Positions 3,328-29,544 of a DNA stretch of 64,000 bases are shown here, piece after piece. A program made the translations under genes and the position numbers. The notes under the pieces were generated by a model. It ran no database searches, had not been told where the DNA came from, and worked only from the letters and a program-made list of their open reading frames with translations. Numbering within the stretch: the stretch's first letter is position 1; each line of letters begins with the position of its first letter. Source of the stretch: a virus; the IMG/VR virus record IMGVR_UViG_3300032087_002150, positions 64,001 through 128,000 of that record; one strand, given 5' to 3'.

Positions 3328-3941
3328 CAATATTCCAAGAAGGCGATAGCATTACAGTCTTTACCCTGACTGTATGGTTGGATGTAACTTATCTCCCATC
3401 CAGAGTTTCTCGCCGCTAGAAGAACATCTGGTTGATCAATGTTATCTATCAACAATTGCTTCACGCCAAAATCTAAACAACATTTCAAATCAATAACAGT
3501 ATTTTGATATGTGTGCGCGCCATCAATCAAGGCGAAATCAAACGGAGCGGATTTGTCTAGATCAGAGTACGCAAAAATTGTTCGTTGACTAACCCAGTTA
3601 AATCTATCGCCATACTTTTCTTTCATTACCTTTGCCATCATCGCTCTAGTATCTGCTGTGTGTTTTTCTAAATCCTCCGGAACCTCGCCCTTTATTTTCT
3701 TCTTTTGCCTTTCTAAAACATGCTTGGCAACAGATTCATAACCAGGACTCACTGTGGTAACTTTTGCTTGTTTAAAGATTTCAAGTAGGTACGTTGTAGA
3801 GTGACCAAGATGAAATCCTATCTCCAGTATGTTTGTAGGTTCCCACCTGCCTTGTATTTGTTCAAAGAAATCAAAAATATGATTTGTTGGAGGCAAGTGC
3901 CCCCAACCATATTCGAGTTCAACTAGATGATCTAAGTTCAT
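3327..3941 (-). CDS. Class I SAM-dependent methyltransferase (Methyltransf_24-like)
   Basis: ILEIGFHLGHS, FDFALIDGAHTY, LLIDN. Confidence 0.8.
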   Translation of the reverse strand: MNLDHLVELEYGWGHLPPTNHIFDFFEQIQGRWEPTNILEIGFHLGHSTTYLLEIFKQAKVTTVSPGYESVAKHVLERQKKKIKGEVPEDLEKHTADTRAMMAKVMKEKYGDRFNWVSQRTIFAYSDLDKSAPFDFALIDGAHTYQNTVIDLKCCLDFGVKQLLIDNIDQPDVLLAARNSGWEISYIQPYSQGKDCNAIAFLEY

Positions 3942-6457
3942 GCGAAAAAATCTTCAAGACTTACTGACTCTTCTTCTTTCCAACCTATCGCCTCAAGCAC
4001 AGGTCGTACCACTGCCAGGAATGCCTTTTCAAACTGCTGTTCATAATCTATGTATTTATGCAACCCAAACTCCTCGGGAAGGAAATCGTAGAAAGCAATG
4101 ATGTTTTCCTTGATAGGGTTCTTTTCGTCAAGGTAGAGAAACTTAATCTTCTCCCCGTCCTTGATTATATTATACCTGCGATCCAATCCTTTGTCAAGCA
4201 ATAGTTTGTTATAAAGCAGAGATCCGCGCACGTGAATGGGGCAACCCTTTTTGTAGATTTCCTTCGCGTCTCTCCACTTACCAACGTCAGATACTCCGCG
4301 AGGAAAGGCAATCTCGTGAGGATCAAGATTGATGAAATGTTCCTTGAACATACGAATAGAGTTTTGCGTTTGCTTTTCAGTTCCCGATATCATGACAGAA
4401 AACAATGCCTTCAAGGCATCACGACAAGAGGCGGGAGTGGATGACTTGACTGCCTCAATACCCATGATCTTTAGTTTGGGTTTGGCATACTGTACACCCT
4501 CGCTGTTATGTACGTTGAGGATGTATCGCTTCTTCGCTGTCCAGATACCTGCGTCAGCGATTACCTCGCGACCCATTACCATCTTGTTCTCATATGCGTT
4601 CATGTACTCGGCAAGTTCATTGTACGATCGCTCGAACAGGGGTTCAAACTTTTCCTCGCCAATCTGCGACAGGATCTGTACAGTCTGATCTGTATCAGTC
4701 AGTCCCATCTTCTCAACGAGAGGACCGAAGTTAACATACACCGAATCAGTGTCAATCGCGATAACGTAGTCAACTCCTTCGGTCTCCAATATCTTGTTCA
4801 TGTATTCGTTGACTGCCTTCTCTGCCCAACGGATAGACAACTGACCTGACATCGTAATCGCTTCTGCCATGCGAATGTCATAGTAACGAAACCAGCGATT
4901 ACCCAACCCACCATAAAGTGAGTTCATCATAATCTTGATCGCCATTTGTTGAGTATCAAGTTTGGTCACCATCTTCGAGGCACCTTTATCACCCTTCTCA
5001 ACTTGAGATTGTAGTCCAAGCATATGCTTCTTTATTTGTTTACGCTCGGCATACAGACCATCAATCACTGCTGGTAGAACACCACGGAAGTCTTTGGAGA
5101 AGTGTACACCGTTGGCGGCGATACAGTCATGCGGCGACTTACTATCGGGTCTCTCCCGAGCGAGGCAGTTATCAACAGTGACACCAGAGGTGCGTGTACT
5201 CACGATAGTCTCAGGCGACATATTATACTGCATGATCAGGTGAGGATACAGACTGTTCAAGTCAAACGAGATAACCCATGAGTGACGACCGATATGCGGT
5301 GCCTTCACATAACCACCACCGAAGTCAGTTTTCATATGTTCTTTCTTGGGCGGCACGACGATCTTGCGTTTACACAGTTCGCGATAGATGTAGGTATCCC
5401 ACAACTGCGTAGTCCCGAATGCTTCCTGATAGTTACAACCACCCTTGTACGCGATAGTCATAGCAAGGTCAATCAAACCCATCTTCTCGTCGATGCGCTC
5501 GACCAACTGGACGTCTTTGATGTTGTAGTCGATAAACTTCTGATAATCTTCCTTGTACAGCGTGTACAGATTACCGTGCTCCTCGTAGGATAGTTTCTTC
5601 TCACCGAGTACAACGTTCGCGATATGATCCAGCTTGTATGACTCCTGTACGCCATACGAGTACACGCCAAACTTTTGAAAGAGATCCCAGTAATCTAGTT
5701 GCTCAATGCCGACCAACTCATAGACCTGCTGCTTTCTACCCTTGAGACTGATTACTTTTTCTCGAACGATACCCCATGGCGACATCTTCTTGAAGGCATC
5801 GCCGCCCAGTATATTGTTGACTCGATTGACAAGATACGGGATATCAAACAGTCGGACGTTCCAACCTGTTACGACATCGGGACAGGTATCTTTACCGTTC
5901 CAGAAACCAAGGAACTTGAGGATGAGATCTAGTTCGCCATCGCACTTGATAAACTTGATATGTTCAGGAGCAACGTCGATCTGAGTTTTCTCAGGATCAT
6001 ACTTGTCTTCAAGTGCCCAGATGAAAAAGTCAGGGCGACCATGATACTTGAGACAGATAGATTGTACTTCTTTTTCTGCTCGCTCAGGTTCAGGGAATCC
6101 GTCATCGGACTCAACCTCGATGTCGATGTTAGCAACGAGAATCTGAGCAGGGTCGTACGATATTTCGTTGGGATAATGCTTCTGTATGTACTGAGCGGCA
6201 AAGTTATTGTTACCGTGTACCTCAACATTATCTACGTTGTCATAGTTCTTCCAGAACTCAGTTGCCTCGGACAACGTTTCAAACTGTACCTCAGACACGC
6301 AACGACCGTCGAGCGTCTTCCACTCGGAGTCTGGTTTATTTGCGGGGAGATACATAACAGGTTTGAAGGTGTCGCGATACTGCTTGCGTACACCGTTCTC
6401 GTATCCTCGGTAGCAAATACTGTTACCGATACGAGAAATATTAGTATAAAACTTCAT
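3938..6457 (-). CDS. 43: DNA polymerase, family B (T4 gp43-like)
   Basis: DIEV exonuclease motif, SFDLNSLYPH, KIMMNSLYG, IDTDS, KKRY; C-terminal clamp-binding tail SLEDFFA. Confidence 0.98.
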   Translation of the reverse strand: MKFYTNISRIGNSICYRGYENGVRKQYRDTFKPVMYLPANKPDSEWKTLDGRCVSEVQFETLSEATEFWKNYDNVDNVEVHGNNNFAAQYIQKHYPNEISYDPAQILVANIDIEVESDDGFPEPERAEKEVQSICLKYHGRPDFFIWALEDKYDPEKTQIDVAPEHIKFIKCDGELDLILKFLGFWNGKDTCPDVVTGWNVRLFDIPYLVNRVNNILGGDAFKKMSPWGIVREKVISLKGRKQQVYELVGIEQLDYWDLFQKFGVYSYGVQESYKLDHIANVVLGEKKLSYEEHGNLYTLYKEDYQKFIDYNIKDVQLVERIDEKMGLIDLAMTIAYKGGCNYQEAFGTTQLWDTYIYRELCKRKIVVPPKKEHMKTDFGGGYVKAPHIGRHSWVISFDLNSLYPHLIMQYNMSPETIVSTRTSGVTVDNCLARERPDSKSPHDCIAANGVHFSKDFRGVLPAVIDGLYAERKQIKKHMLGLQSQVEKGDKGASKMVTKLDTQQMAIKIMMNSLYGGLGNRWFRYYDIRMAEAITMSGQLSIRWAEKAVNEYMNKILETEGVDYVIAIDTDSVYVNFGPLVEKMGLTDTDQTVQILSQIGEEKFEPLFERSYNELAEYMNAYENKMVMGREVIADAGIWTAKKRYILNVHNSEGVQYAKPKLKIMGIEAVKSSTPASCRDALKALFSVMISGTEKQTQNSIRMFKEHFINLDPHEIAFPRGVSDVGKWRDAKEIYKKGCPIHVRGSLLYNKLLLDKGLDRRYNIIKDGEKIKFLYLDEKNPIKENIIAFYDFLPEEFGLHKYIDYEQQFEKAFLAVVRPVLEAIGWKEEESVSLEDFFA

Positions 6458-10520: not shown

Positions 10521-10756
10521 CAGTGTATAGTATCCTCAATATATGGTTGAGAAAGCACCCACTGTACATCGGGCAACATACGGTATGTGAAATGAGAACC
10601 GTAGATATCCTCAACCTTTATCAATTCTTCATGAGTAAAGTCTCGCATCAATCTATCAATTACAAGTTGCTGTACTTCAGTAGCGAGGGAATCAACTTTT
10701 AATCTTACGGATTCCACGTCGCTGTCAGTAAAATCGTAGTCAAACAAACTCGACAT
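10520..10756 (-). CDS. Hypothetical protein
   Basis: In-strand ORF overlapping both neighbours. Confidence 0.6.
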   Translation of the reverse strand: MSSLFDYDFTDSDVESVRLKVDSLATEVQQLVIDRLMRDFTHEELIKVEDIYGSHFTYRMLPDVQWVLSQPYIEDTIH

Positions 10757-11678
10757 TCGCCATCATCTCCGTTAAACAAGCAACCATATTTAGTTCCGCA
10801 TCAGCAACGAACGCTGCCTTGTATTGATAATCCGCAAGGATTAGAACCAACTGAGGAATGCTGTTCGGCGCAACATACTGAGTCATAGCATCATAGATGC
10901 CACGGAAAATAGCAGCGGACTCAACGTCCATGTTATTGGCAACCCATACCCGCATGTTCTTGAAGTCTTTTTCTTTGATATAGGAAAACAACTCCGCGAT
11001 ACTTTCGCTGTTTGACTTACTGAGAACATCCAGTTGAAGTTCGCCGCCACGAGAGTGACGCTGAAGTTCGTTGATGATTCTTCGCCAGTCAGGAGCGTGA
11101 CGCATAATCAGTTCGGCGAGAACTTTTCCGTTATCAAGTTTGACGTTCTCTTGATCCAGAATAAACTTCGCTCGCTTCATAAACTGTTCGCAAAGTTTCG
11201 CCATGTCTTTCTTGCTGGTGTTAAACTCAATCACACCACAACGAGAATGGAGAGGTTCGATGATCTTGTTCTTGAAGTTACAAGTCAGAATGAATCGACA
11301 GTTCTTCGAGAACTCCTCGATAAACCCACGGAGAGCAGGTTGGGTTGACTGTGCATTCAGATAGTCTGCCTCATCAAGGATACATACTTTGTACCCGCCT
11401 GACAAGGAAACACTGGAAGCGAACTGTTTGATCTTACCACGGAGAGTGTCGATATTACCAGACTCCGAAGCGTTGATCAAGATATAGTCAAGGTCAAGCT
11501 CGTTACAGATAGCACGAGCAACAGTAGTTTTGCCAAGACCAGCAGTACCAGTTAGCAACATGTTCGGCACTTCGCCAGTGCCCACAATCTCTTTAAACTG
11601 TGCCTTCAAGTGATCTGGAAGGATACACTCATCAATCGTCTTCGGACGATACTTCTCAACCCACAATGATTCAACCAT
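10740..11678 (-). CDS. 44: Clamp loader large subunit (gp44)
   Basis: LWVEKYRPKTIDECILP, GTAGLGKTT Walker A, ILDEAD, PLHSRC. Confidence 0.97.
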   Translation of the reverse strand: MVESLWVEKYRPKTIDECILPDHLKAQFKEIVGTGEVPNMLLTGTAGLGKTTVARAICNELDLDYILINASESGNIDTLRGKIKQFASSVSLSGGYKVCILDEADYLNAQSTQPALRGFIEEFSKNCRFILTCNFKNKIIEPLHSRCGVIEFNTSKKDMAKLCEQFMKRAKFILDQENVKLDNGKVLAELIMRHAPDWRRIINELQRHSRGGELQLDVLSKSNSESIAELFSYIKEKDFKNMRVWVANNMDVESAAIFRGIYDAMTQYVAPNSIPQLVLILADYQYKAAFVADAELNMVACLTEMMANVEFV

Positions 11679-16529: not shown

Positions 16530-17207
16530 TTATTCTCCATAAGTTGAGGATGGTTCGAGTGCTACGATATATTTGATATCTCCAGTATCTTTCTTCCACT
16601 CGGTGATCATTTTACTGGAAATAGAAACCTCATAGTCGCCCTCAATCATTTTAAGATTGCCGATGTTCGCGACAAGTTTAAAATCATCAATGTCAGATGA
16701 CCCAGGAACGATGAGGTCAAATGAGTTAGAAGTTGGATCAGTCACATCTACAACTGACAACTTGATGCCGTTCTCACTTGGCAGGATACTCATTTTCTCA
16801 TGACCGAGAGCGGATGCTGCTCGGCGAAGTCGATTCAACGTAGTTGAGTTGATATTAAACTTAGCAACTTCATCAGGCAAGGTGATCGACTTTTCAGTGA
16901 AGGTAAGGATCTCCTCAGAAGCATAGTAATACTTACAACTGTTGAGTCCAGTCCCGTCTGAAACTACCAGATGATCGTCATTGAAAGTTAGATGATGATC
17001 ATCCAAGATACTGATTACTGACAAGAACTCTCCCATATCATAAAGACCGAATCGCTTAGGGAAATCCTGATCTAGAGTTGCTTCCGCGAGAATACTTTTA
17101 CCGCCAGATAGACTGTTCAAGGTATTCTGTTCTCGGATCAACATGTTTGGATTAATACTCGCAAAGTTCTGAAGAACCTTTAAAGTGTTTTCATTGAGTT
17201 GCATCAT
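16530..17207 (-). CDS. 45: Sliding clamp (gp45)
   Basis: TLKVLQNFASIN...FGLYD..EFLS...NLKMIEGDYEVSIS...YIVALE; AAGGAG RBS before MMQLNE. Confidence 0.93.
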   Translation of the reverse strand: MMQLNENTLKVLQNFASINPNMLIREQNTLNSLSGGKSILAEATLDQDFPKRFGLYDMGEFLSVISILDDHHLTFNDDHLVVSDGTGLNSCKYYYASEEILTFTEKSITLPDEVAKFNINSTTLNRLRRAASALGHEKMSILPSENGIKLSVVDVTDPTSNSFDLIVPGSSDIDDFKLVANIGNLKMIEGDYEVSISSKMITEWKKDTGDIKYIVALEPSSTYGE

Positions 17208-22531: not shown

Positions 22532-22592
22532 ATTCTGCCTGAATAAAACCGCAAAGGCAAATCTAAAAAACTTTAAGATAATCAAGGACTTA
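22532..22592 (-). promoter_or_regulatory. Early promoter with upstream IHF-consensus box (copy 3)
   Basis: TTGCCT-N17-CAGAAT; AATCAAGGACTTA at 22580-22592. Confidence 0.6.
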
Positions 22593-23399
22593 CGCAAAGA
22601 AATCTTCTAGTGAAACGGAACTAGACTTTTCGTACTTGCCTCCACTCTTATCTCGTAGACGAAGTTCAGCGTGCCCAGTAGAACTACGAATGTACATAGA
22701 GCAAAGATCTGGAAACATCTCAGCAATCTTGGTGATCGAATCATGCACATATTGCTCAGTCCTTATAGTTTGTAGTCCACCTTCCTCTTTGTAATAGTTG
22801 GACTTCACTGTGTATTTATCAAGGCGGCACAGTACACCGTGTTTCACATACTGTCGCAGACTATACTCATAGTCCTCGCCATGATTAGTTACACGATCAA
22901 GGTATTCATCATGATCACAAATGACGCCAAACATAGAAGCAATGATATAACAAAGTTTAGAGTAGACTCGATCCTTCATAAAGTATGCGTTCGCAGCTGC
23001 GTAGATACCAAAAGTTTTAGCACCGAGTTCCTCACAGTTTTTAAACCCCTGTTCAATAATCTCAGTGTAGAGATCATCAATGGGTTCTAGAGTTTTCTCA
23101 TCCTTCCTACGTTGTACCTGTTCAATGTCGTCATCAAACATCATCAGGTAAGTGCCCTCTGGGTAATACTTCTCAATCCAGTTACGTTGAGCACCGATAG
23201 TCGGGACACCAACTACAATGTTGCCTCCATACTTGTGTCCAGCAAGTGCCTCTTTGTATACTGCTTCCTCTTCTTCATTCGCAACGAAAACAGTAACACG
23301 TTCAGGTGGGATGTTATGTTCCTCAAATACCTTGAACGTCTTATCTTGAATAGTCTTAGATCGTTGGTAGGAAGGGCAGGCGATTTGATAATCAATCAT
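22590..23399 (-). CDS. TET/JBP-associated (GREB1/TAGT-like) GT-A glycosyltransferase
   Basis: IACPSYQR, AQRNWI, MFDDDI, GEDYEYSL, GGLQ; in an operon with a TET/JBP dioxygenase; C-terminal SVSLEDFFA. Confidence 0.8.
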   Translation of the reverse strand: MIDYQIACPSYQRSKTIQDKTFKVFEEHNIPPERVTVFVANEEEEAVYKEALAGHKYGGNIVVGVPTIGAQRNWIEKYYPEGTYLMMFDDDIEQVQRRKDEKTLEPIDDLYTEIIEQGFKNCEELGAKTFGIYAAANAYFMKDRVYSKLCYIIASMFGVICDHDEYLDRVTNHGEDYEYSLRQYVKHGVLCRLDKYTVKSNYYKEEGGLQTIRTEQYVHDSITKIAEMFPDLCSMYIRSSTGHAELRLRDKSGGKYEKSSSVSLEDFFA

Positions 23400-23799
23400 T
23401 ACAAACTCTCTTTCTTAAATCACTAGAACTAAATCGGTGGTCTCTTTTGTTAAAGTATAGATCGATGTCACGTTTGCGACAAATATCTTTACCAGTAAAA
23501 TCTTTATCCCGATACTCTTCGCCGAGGATACGCACGTTGATATGATACATCGCTAGGATATCTTCTAGGTCTGCCTCAGTAGAGTATGGGATAATCTCAT
23601 CAACGTAGCGAACTGCTTTGAGTTGAGTGTATCTCTCGACGACAGTTTGAATAGGTTGATTTTTGTTAGGACGGTCAAGAGTCGGGTCTACCTGTAGTCC
23701 ACAAATCAAATAATCACATTGGTCTTTGGCATCACGAAGCATTTGTACATGTCCAGCATGCAGCAAATCAAAAGCACTACAAGTAAACCCAACTCTCAT
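23392..23799 (-). CDS. TagD-like cytidylyltransferase / nucleotidyltransferase
   Basis: FDLLHAGH (HxGH), ER..QL.AVRYVDEII.Y, RFSSSDLR. Confidence 0.88.
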   Translation of the reverse strand: MRVGFTCSAFDLLHAGHVQMLRDAKDQCDYLICGLQVDPTLDRPNKNQPIQTVVERYTQLKAVRYVDEIIPYSTEADLEDILAMYHINVRILGEEYRDKDFTGKDICRKRDIDLYFNKRDHRFSSSDLRKRVCND

Positions 23800-25220
23800 C
23801 CGAAAAACTCCTCAAGCGAACCTGCTTGTTGGAAAGCATTAGGATGATATTCCATCAACATGGACTTACCACCCTTCTTTTCAAGGTATTCATACCACTC
23901 AGTCTCATCCCACATGCCAGGGGAGACACCATTCCAATACTCGCGCCATAACTTATGCTCTTTGTTAAGTCGGCGGTCATCAACGTATTGTTTACGATAC
24001 GACTCATACTCCCAAGAACCCAACTTATCCATATCCTCGCGGAAGTAATATACCAGAGACATACGCATCAAGTCATCTTCACCTGAGTCGGGTGCTTCGA
24101 TAGGAGTGTTGCCATGGATCACTCGCATGTTATCAACGAGTAGCAGGTCTCCTGGTCGAACGTTGATAGCAACGCGAACCTCTGGACAAACAAGATAACC
24201 ACCCTTCCAGTTTCGCTTACCGTCACTGATCACAGTCAGGTTTGAGAATCCTGGGACGAGCGAACCTTGGTCACGGTGGCATGCCATACGTGCATTACGA
24301 TCCTTGGTGGTTGTGTTCACTGTAATCGTAGTGAAGGTTGTATCCTCGCCGATCAAGAAACGGTTGTCCAATCTATCAGCAAATGCTTTCTGCTTGCTGT
24401 ATCGTTCAGGAAGCAACTCGGCGAAAGTCTTGTCGAGTTTACGAGCGAACGGATATGACTTCTCAAACTTCTCACGGTTGTGGTCAACGTATGAAGTCGC
24501 CCGACCATATGGGATACGTGGGTATCGACCATAGAAACCTGCGATACCTGACCAGATAGCAGTCGCATAAGAAGTATCGGAGATCATGGTATCACGAACA
24601 CGCTGAGCATATATTGATGCTGCATGAATATCTGGAGAATAACCAAGACCCTTGGTCAACTCAGAAAGTCGCACCATTAGTTTCGGAAAGAACCCATCAT
24701 ACTCGCCGAACTCTTTCTCAATAGCAGTCGTCAACCAAACTTCGCCTCTCGCCTGCTCATCGTTGCTGCTTTTAGCAATCTCTTCCAACGGATCAGATCC
24801 GTCGATGCTTGGCGGTTGCCCTTTGATGTACCAATCGAGGACTCTACTTTGAAACGCAGTGACCCACTCGCGACCATATGACTTGCCTTCCCTCGGACCT
24901 GCTGCTAGACCACGATTGTTCGACTCAACTGCTGCGCCATACAACCCTTCAAGAGCACCGTCCTGTTCTTCCTGAGTAAACACACCCTTGCGGAACTTAA
25001 ACGCAATACGATCCTCGTTTAGAGTATCACCTGTCAACGAGTTACTCGGAAGATAAAAATCTGTATCTCTATCAATCAAGATGTCATAGTGTTCCTCGTC
25101 AACAAACTGACCAAGGACTTTGTCTTCAGACTCTATGAAGTTAGCAATGTATACATCTTGACCTTCGTCACCAGTGAACCAGTCCCAAGTGTAGTTTCCG
25201 TGTTTGATTTTTTCGTTCAT
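23796..25220 (-). CDS. TET/JBP-family 2OG-Fe(II) DNA dioxygenase
   Basis: FTTITVN...ACHRD (HxD)...GGYLV.PE.RVA...RPGDLLL...HGNTPI...RMSLVYY(F)RE; C-terminal SLEEFFG. Confidence 0.85.
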   Translation of the reverse strand: MNEKIKHGNYTWDWFTGDEGQDVYIANFIESEDKVLGQFVDEEHYDILIDRDTDFYLPSNSLTGDTLNEDRIAFKFRKGVFTQEEQDGALEGLYGAAVESNNRGLAAGPREGKSYGREWVTAFQSRVLDWYIKGQPPSIDGSDPLEEIAKSSNDEQARGEVWLTTAIEKEFGEYDGFFPKLMVRLSELTKGLGYSPDIHAASIYAQRVRDTMISDTSYATAIWSGIAGFYGRYPRIPYGRATSYVDHNREKFEKSYPFARKLDKTFAELLPERYSKQKAFADRLDNRFLIGEDTTFTTITVNTTTKDRNARMACHRDQGSLVPGFSNLTVISDGKRNWKGGYLVCPEVRVAINVRPGDLLLVDNMRVIHGNTPIEAPDSGEDDLMRMSLVYYFREDMDKLGSWEYESYRKQYVDDRRLNKEHKLWREYWNGVSPGMWDETEWYEYLEKKGGKSMLMEYHPNAFQQAGSLEEFFG

Positions 25221-25227
25221 AGTTCCT

Positions 25228-25256
25228 ATTCTACTAAATCACAAATCAAAAGTCAA
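25228..25256 (-). promoter_or_regulatory. Sigma70-type promoter for the TET operon
   Basis: TTGACT-N17-TAGAAT just upstream of the ATG at 25220. Confidence 0.65.
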
Positions 25257-25409
25257 TACCTGAGAATCAACCATTGTAAACTTTTGACTTTTGGTTCGTA
25301 TCTCTAATCCGTTGTATTTATGTTTGATCCCGTTTTCAGTCATTTCCTTAGATAAAGAGGCGAGGTCATTGTACTTCATTGATTTCTTCTTGGGAATATA
25401 TTTCTTCAT
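25239..25409 (-). CDS. Small basic hypothetical protein (56 aa; not in ORF track)
   Basis: MKKYIPKKKSMKYNDLASL...VLTFDL; ATGA overlap with the upstream gene. Confidence 0.55.
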   Translation of the reverse strand: MKKYIPKKKSMKYNDLASLSKEMTENGIKHKYNGLEIRTKSQKFTMVDSQVLTFDL

Positions 25410-28947: not shown

Positions 28948-29544
28948 CTATTCCTCTAGGAATTCTGTGAGGTCTGAGTCAACTTGATATGATTTTTTAC
29001 GATTAGCGACCTTGGTCACTTTCTTATACTCATCAACTGCTTTGTCTTTTTCTTTCACGTCATCAATGCGGCGACGAAGATTATCAACAAAGGACTGCAC
29101 TGCTTTTGCTACTTGCGGATCTTCGTCAGGGTCAACCATAAACTCTTCGATGCCTGACTCAGCAAGGAACTTTAGTTTTACGTCTTGTTGTTTCTTTTCT
29201 TTCTTGATACGACGAATGAACGCAAACCAAGAGATCTGAGTAAAGTATCCGAATGCGTTTGGTTTACCCTTTCTAGTTGCTGCTTCAATGTTGTAGTTCC
29301 CCACAGCATTCAAACAGTTTTCAACTGCGTCCATCACCATTTCTTCACGATAGGTGTATCGGACAAAGTTTGATTTATGCGAAAGACCTTCAGCAATTTT
29401 TAGAAAGCAGCGAGCAATGTAATCGGTAACCATCGGATCGGGTTGATTCTTTTCCCTCGCCTCTCTAACGGTCTTTACATAATCTACGACTGCTTGTGAA
29501 AACTCTTTGTTATTCACATAATGTGGACGTTCGCTCGGTTTCAT
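28948..29544 (-). CDS. 55: Late transcription sigma factor (gp55)
   Basis: HYVNNKEF, IA..LS.K.NF..YTYREEMV.D.VENC, NAF.YFTQI...AF.RRIKKEKKQ. Confidence 0.95.
   Translation of the reverse strand: MKPSERPHYVNNKEFSQAVVDYVKTVREAREKNQPDPMVTDYIARCFLKIAEGLSHKSNFVRYTYREEMVMDAVENCLNAVGNYNIEAATRKGKPNAFGYFTQISWFAFIRRIKKEKKQQDVKLKFLAESGIEEFMVDPDEDPQVAKAVQSFVDNLRRRIDDVKEKDKAVDEYKKVTKVANRKKSYQVDSDLTEFLEE

Follow-up and report, generated by a model that had tools for sequence, protein, structure and literature searches.

The window analysed here comprises 64,000 nucleotides of the IMG/VR virus record IMGVR_UViG_3300032087_002150 (positions 64,001 to 128,000), which is a 151.7-kb marine T4-like phage record with an estimated completeness of ~84%. 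It contains three overlapping genes encoding a TET/JBP dioxygenase (TET), a cytidylyltransferase (CT) and a TET-associated glycosyltransferase (TAGT; Table 1). TET and TAGT end in a short tail that resembles the C-terminus of the phage's own DNA polymerase gp43 and is a candidate binding motif for the sliding clamp gp45. The three-gene arrangement had been predicted earlier and is confirmed by the coordinates of the open reading frames (ORFs), which overlap by 4 nt (TET/CT) and 8 nt (CT/TAGT), and by Pfam, since all three families score above their cut-offs (Tet_JBP, 55.8 vs 34.9 bits; CTP_transf_like, 52.7 vs 21; TAGT, 61.8 vs 27.5). The genes flanking TET are a 171-aa ORF without a ParB match, a 56-aa ORF and CT. 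In two DNA runs, possibly the source of the record, the locus is unbroken within a single contig; RNA runs yielded only strain contigs, 95-97% alike.

Table 1. Genes, tails and further features of the window discussed in the text.
Feature	Position (nt)	Strand	Basis
TET/JBP 5-methylpyrimidine dioxygenase (TET), 474 aa, probably a thymine dioxygenase	23796..25220	-	PF12851
TET C-terminal LxxFF tail, candidate gp45-binding motif	23796..23822	-	97/100 TETs; outside the fold
TET-associated GT-A glycosyltransferase (TAGT, JGT-like), 269 aa	22590..23399	-	PF20691, motif, fold
TAGT C-terminal tail, 9 residues equal to those of gp43	22590..22619	-	116/120 homologs keep the motif
TagD-like cytidylyltransferase (CT), 135 aa, without tail, role in a DNA pathway uncertain	23392..23799	-	Pfam
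gp43 DNA polymerase	3938..6457	-	family B polymerase profile; clamp-binding tail at 3938-3967
gp45 sliding clamp, proposed partner	16530..17207	-	PF09116
Likely gp44 clamp-loader subunit	10740..11678	-	recognised from sequence and position
Likely gp55 late sigma factor, with a related acidic-hydrophobic tail	28948..29544	-	strict pattern in 19/42 of the family
Candidate sigma70-like promoter, TTGACT-17-TAGAAT	25228..25256	-	10/12 match

Both enzymes look intact, with their catalytic motifs kept in sequence and model. The HxD...H iron ligands and the 2-oxoglutarate-binding arginine of TET (H315, D317, H369, R386) are invariant in 26 homologs, and its structural model finds TET2 and NgTET1 as best Foldseek matches (E ~1e-9). 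The model of TAGT has a GT-A fold; R13, D89-D91 and E175-Y177 are invariant and fit the R...DDD...EDY motif, which Pyle et al. (2023, 10.1101/2023.12.21.572611) describe for the DNA GT-A enzymes of phages and for JGT of trypanosomes. In both models, the tail is predicted as a short helix after a coil, beyond the folded core, and is preceded by a linker of ~10 residues in TET and ~15 in TAGT. Residues 466-474 of TET are modelled outside the fold with pLDDT <50.

The last nine residues of TAGT, SVSLEDFFA, are identical to the last nine of gp43. As the original prediction stated, this common end is written in different codons: seven of nine differ (two identical), and 18 of 27 nt agree. Its two other statements on tails hold as well, namely that TET ends in GSLEEFFG, i.e., in an LxxFF tail, and that CT lacks one. 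Among the 202 genes used as the set for the chance expectation, a terminal LxxFF would be expected in ~0.09 genes, compared with four seen (gp43, TAGT, TET and a baseplate hub). Most homologs have only the consensus in common and not the exact SVSLEDFFA; the nine-residue identity is peculiar to this genome and represents the consensus plus, probably, a contribution of chance. Two Dam-type methylases and the gp33 homolog of the window's genome are without an LxxFF tail.

The distribution of the tail was surveyed in 100 related loci, including the window's own TET, with a strict LxxFF pattern; LxxMF was counted apart. It is present on 97 of 100 TETs (93 strict, four LxxMF), on 15 of 16 TAGTs and on all six GT-B glycosyltransferases. 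When TAGT homologs are considered, 116 of 120 retain the motif, although the linker before it ranges from 7 to 14 residues. An absence of the tail from homologs in gp45-encoding phages, which the original prediction had named as evidence against itself, is thus not what the TET and TAGT counts show. The tail further occurs on the amino-acid:DNA transferase (ADDT; 28/53), GNAT (25/48), gp43 (16/19) and gp55 (19/42). It was found on none of the 20 CTs, 51 amidotransferases (GATases) and 26 amidoligases of the survey, nor on gp46, gp47 and UvsW at these loci, and the background amounts to 19 of 1313 other ORFs (1.4%). In TET it is kept down to ~40% identity, and it is found on five unrelated enzyme folds. 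Judged from these sequences, the tail is real, conserved and probably functional. At L008:11389-16749 and similar loci, the same TET precedes genes for a GATase, an amidoligase, a GNAT, an unannotated protein of 430-495 aa, an ADDT and a kinase. Of these downstream genes only GNAT and ADDT are tailed, which suggests that GNAT acts on DNA.

Most gp43-encoding isolates have tailed modifiers. Cultured isolates which encode gp43 and a tailed TET are C48C1, DLP6 and Melnitz, and a tailed TAGT occurs in the gp43-encoding isolates DLP6 and Cr30. In C48C1, a Dam-type methyltransferase directly after gene 43 (L035:3895-4779) also carries LxxFF. TETs without the tail were found in S-CBWM1, HTVC112P, P12024L, Acadian and Altadena; none of these five has a gp43 match, and gp45 is also absent from the first three. 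Close TETs without a tail come from a contig of a non-T4 phage and from a mobile element of a bacterium, and a distant branch of short TETs is tailed and lies within T4-like contigs. A quick tree, whose deep branches are weak, suggests separate gains of the tail without proving them. A tail-less 1123-aa TET fusion of the same branch as the close TETs lies in a bacterial mobile element beside Csf3 and CRISPR-associated genes (L060:5842-9213).

We compare these tails with the C-terminal motifs of T4/RB69 gp43, gp55 and gp33 and with the internal motif of T4 ligase (PMC2988020, PMC6212786; PDB 1B8H, 6DRT). The gp43-type motif binds a hydrophobic pocket of gp45, and among gp43, gp55 and gp33 one such motif can stand in for another (PMC2988020; PMC6212786). 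Shared features are a short acidic-hydrophobic C-terminal motif, a variable linker, the sequence of the cognate gp43 and a gp45 encoded in the same genome. Different are the location of the candidate motif on base-modifying enzymes and its form, LxxFF rather than LDFLF. The gp45 of the window aligns over its full length with the RB69 and T4 clamps (1B77/1B8H/1CZD/6DRT). Predictions of a complex between gp45 and TET residues 428-474 scored 0.35, 0.19 and 0.23 in three runs (mark 0.32) and do not decide either way. The tails of TET and TAGT quite likely dock on gp45.

The original prediction suggested examining whether the tails co-vary with the cognate gp43 tail, and covariation is seen in three lineages. 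Salmonella phage Det7 has a divergent gp43 tail with the motif VNLLSMM, which is echoed by the tails of its ADDT (VNLMTLL) and kinase (VSLLGLL; L062:1120-4017, L069:14952-17948). In Cr30, gp43 (DLSSLF) and TAGT (DLSKLF) have the form DLSxLF in common, and at locus L058 both gp43 and TET end in LDDLFG. In a permutation test over 22 genomes, cognate pairs agreed better than shuffled ones (p=0.0003, and p 0.001-0.003 with Det7 left out), although these values are optimistic because the genomes are related. Inside the marine LxxFF group, the permutation test found no significant covariation; the signal in these comparisons depends on Det7, Cr30 and L058. At L058 the TET gene lies between split gp43 halves (L058:8550-13293), and its last six residues are those of the second half. 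In Vibrio phage VPALA (L063:3779-6971), an adjacent ADDT, an unknown gene and a methyltransferase all end in STAKRLW; a gp45 homolog is present, and the C-terminal part of the annotated polymerase matches only the AKR of this ending.

The substrate of TET is probably thymine, because no C5-methyltransferase (PF00145) was detected in the window's genome (~84% complete) or in the complete genomes of C48C1, DLP6 and Cr30. Melnitz, the positive control, has one. The TET of C48C1 is 67% identical to the window's TET and that of Melnitz 25%. In many relatives, the same TET stands beside a 5-hydroxymethyluracil (hmU) kinase and an ADDT; Lee (2021; PMC8989533) and O'Toole (2026; PMC13229309) read this combination, when no C5-methyltransferase is present, as thymine oxidation. 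With respect to the clades of Burke (2021), there is no adjacent C5-cytosine methyltransferase as in the 5-methylcytosine (5mC) dioxygenase clades A/B. ParB, expected for the ParB-dependent clade C1, is absent from the genes flanking TET, a genome-wide ParB search not having been made. The context fits the ParB-independent clade C2 (5mYOX89/97), whose members often stand beside glycosyltransferases, whereas the length does not (474 aa vs ~290-300 aa). No match to ThyA/ThyX was found in the 151.7-kb record, although such a gene could sit in the missing part, and no nucleotide-level hydroxymethylase was found in the same ~84% complete record.

The sequences and models show to which families the enzymes belong, that their catalytic motifs are intact and how the tail motif is conserved and distributed. 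For the pathway as a whole, we infer binding, the thymine substrate, the sugar, the timing and the benefit as follows. TET would oxidise thymine in phage DNA to 5-hydroxymethyluracil, and TAGT would transfer a sugar to it from a nucleotide-sugar donor. The resulting glycosyl-thymine, similar to base J, would probably protect the genome against nucleases of the host. Via their tails, the two enzymes would dock in the hydrophobic pocket of gp45 rings loaded by the phage and would so be concentrated on recently replicated or nicked phage DNA, not on host DNA; phage DNA would be favoured because, presumably, only phage clamp loaders load gp45. Most likely they would use clamps vacated by the polymerase or loaded at nicks, as ligase and gp55/gp33 do, and this is more likely than permanent riding at the fork. 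We consider the complete thymine-glycosylation model likely.

Several observations weigh against this model or parts of it. Without Det7, Cr30 and L058 the covariation is lost (p 0.07-0.18), and for TET alone it is not significant (p 0.06-0.2). The P-loop DNA kinase, a DNA-acting enzyme, is tail-less in 45 of 45 loci of this group, and the TETs of the gp43-encoding lineage L111/L112 and of Cr30 have no clear tail. Because the baseplate hub of the same genome (L153:7139-7870, outside the window), a structural protein, also ends in LxxFF, the motif is not exclusive to clamp clients, and the hub serves as a false-positive control. Catalysis probably does not depend on the tail, since other phage thymine dioxygenases work in E. 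coli without gp45. Finally, as the genome is ~84% complete, a methyltransferase could sit in its missing part.

The hub, the tail-less kinase and the three STAKRLW-ending modifier genes of VPALA, which the polymerase matches in part only, would fit a tail that docks a partner other than gp45 (some other hub protein of the phage, an adaptor for a protease or a complex formed by the modifiers themselves) or that is simply a generic hydrophobic C-terminus. This is improbable given that the tail is identical to that of gp43, whose partner is established, that it depends on gp45-type genomes and that it tracks gp43 in Det7, Cr30 and L058. If, on the other hand, the tails bind gp45 and the modified base is 5mC, the methyltransferase would have to be unassembled or host-supplied. 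The incomplete assembly leaves room for this, in Melnitz a tailed TET is accompanied by a C5-methyltransferase, and some thymine dioxygenases are reported to oxidise 5mC too. However, three complete genomes with this TET type are without PF00145, the neighbours in many loci are the kinase and ADDT of the thymine pathway, and the Melnitz TET is the distant one at 25% identity, so that we give 5mC little credence. Chance, or a stretch of gene 43 copied recently at the DNA level, might be suspected behind the match, as the motif is short and the exact nine-residue identity occurs only in this genome. Both were rejected as the source of the motif: the expectation of 0.09 genes, the seven differing codons and the conservation to ~40% TET identity and across five unrelated folds leave them next to no probability.

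A narrower case of the gp45-docking model places both enzymes on the gp45 trimer of the working polymerase, with near-complete coverage of nascent DNA. The original prediction had the enzymes riding behind the fork in this way, which exceeds what a gp45 motif implies, namely only that its bearer docks on the clamp in the manner of gp55, gp33 and ligase. Three equivalent pockets per clamp trimer (PMC6212786), up to three tailed modifiers per genome and the proposed action of T4 alpha-glucosyltransferase (alpha-GT) with the replisome are in line with it. Nevertheless, it is doubtful that the enzymes and the polymerase at work occupy the same ring, because only one full-length T4 ligase is bound per gp45 trimer although three peptides can bind (PMC6212786), and because the linkers are as short as given above. 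Moreover, characterised phage thymine dioxygenases are described as sequence-specific, with ~9-35% of T converted in E. coli. We therefore regard this strict version as rather unlikely. The parallel drawn earlier with the speed and coverage of modification in T4 is likewise not supported; T4 itself glucosylates after replication and its alpha/beta ratio depended largely on expression.

The novelty of the coupling had been overstated: an interaction of a DNA glucosyltransferase with gp45 is already published for T4. Binding of alpha-GT to gp45 was reported by Sommer (2004, PMID 15381072, as cited), and co-purification of the two was confirmed in PMC13216743, whose preprint had reported no interaction and which finds that expression largely sets the T4 alpha/beta ratio. 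T4 alpha-GT is likewise a phage DNA glycosyltransferase on gp45, proposed to modify with replication, but it is a GT-B enzyme, acts on pre-made hydroxymethylcytosine and lacks such a motif, both terminally and internally; in the window's phage the oxidation enzyme is tailed as well. Neither did we find the motif in T4 beta-GT and T6 TAGT. The phage 5mYOX and glycosyltransferase pathways (Burke 2021, PMC8256090; Pyle 2023; O'Toole 2026; Lee 2021) use the same TET and GT-A chemistry, and clamp tethering is not discussed in those passages that were searched. The window's TET is of a 474-aa T4-like type without a ParB neighbour, in contrast to the ~290-300 aa of the tested ParB-independent enzymes in the same sources. 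Trypanosome base J (JBP and JGT) involves the same thymine oxidation followed by glycosylation by TET/JBP and GT-A enzymes, while a phage setting and probable clamp targeting distinguish the present case. DNMT1-PCNA (PMC9690074) is another base modifier recruited to new DNA via a clamp-binding motif; there, however, a PIP box serves eukaryotic maintenance methylation, whereas here a de novo two-step viral modification is concerned. In summary, the chemistry has been described before, and T4 alpha-GT and DNMT1 are precedents for coupling modification to a clamp. The literature searched, most subscription papers being out of reach, yielded no description of such tails on phage TET or TAGT, and the polymerase-type tail on TET and several unrelated modifiers across T4-related phages appears to be unreported.

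Post-replicative hypermodification requires that several enzymes locate phage DNA and complete their work before it is packaged; for other phages, ParB has been proposed as the targeting factor. A gp45 tag would be a simple means of targeting, testable in cultured DLP6, Cr30, C48C1 and Det7-like phages, the last of which have ViI relatives with characterised enzymes. The clamp could even be a general scaffold for post-replicative DNA hypermodification across T4-related phages, which we put forward tentatively, with slightly more doubt than trust. If so, TET, GT-A, GT-B, ADDT, GNAT and some kinases and Dam enzymes would have gained a cognate tail independently, and the tail would aim multi-step modification at phage DNA and let it be completed before packaging. 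It would also predict DNA-acting enzymes among unknown ones, and phages without gp45 may use the host beta-clamp instead. For annotation, tailed members of such cassettes are probably DNA-acting enzymes, and by this rule GNAT would be an acetyltransferase working at the DNA level. The motif could be masked by the C-terminal tags that are common in screens of such enzymes.

CT is a loose rather than fixed partner of TAGT, as far as gene order indicates. A fixed three-gene pathway, as assumed originally, is not supported: TAGT orthologues at 66-83% identity directly follow TET without an adjacent CT, and next to the closest TETs (86-92%) CT is paired with an epimerase and other genes, not with TAGT. 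An obligatory step of CT in supplying a CDP donor is hence unproven and was not retained. Since the closest TETs have a different downstream set, the module after TET seems to be swapped between near relatives. Downstream of TET at L002:6190-10357, L035:21413-23445 and L111, an epimerase, glycosyltransferases and a probable flavoenzyme sugar mutase are encoded, without clear tails.

The cluster had been assigned a sigma70 promoter of its own. The site in Table 1 (25256-25228) is the best in a scan of the region, and its layout is the same in the close relatives L001 and L002. Taken by itself it is weak, because 12 sigma70-like matches were seen where 9.2 are expected by chance, and so the assignment stands little above chance. 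As the -10 box ends 7 nt upstream of the TET start codon, a transcript from this predicted promoter would be leaderless or nearly so. The predicted promoter overlaps the end of the 56-aa ORF (25239-25409).

The bacterial beta-clamp motif is QL[SD]LF. In the Nonlabens phage P12024L (L040:5619-7014), which has neither gp45 nor a family B polymerase, TAGT ends in QLEIF and the next gene, a methyltransferase, in QQTLF, both resembling that motif. Possibly, the enzymes of P12024L use the same strategy via the host clamp.

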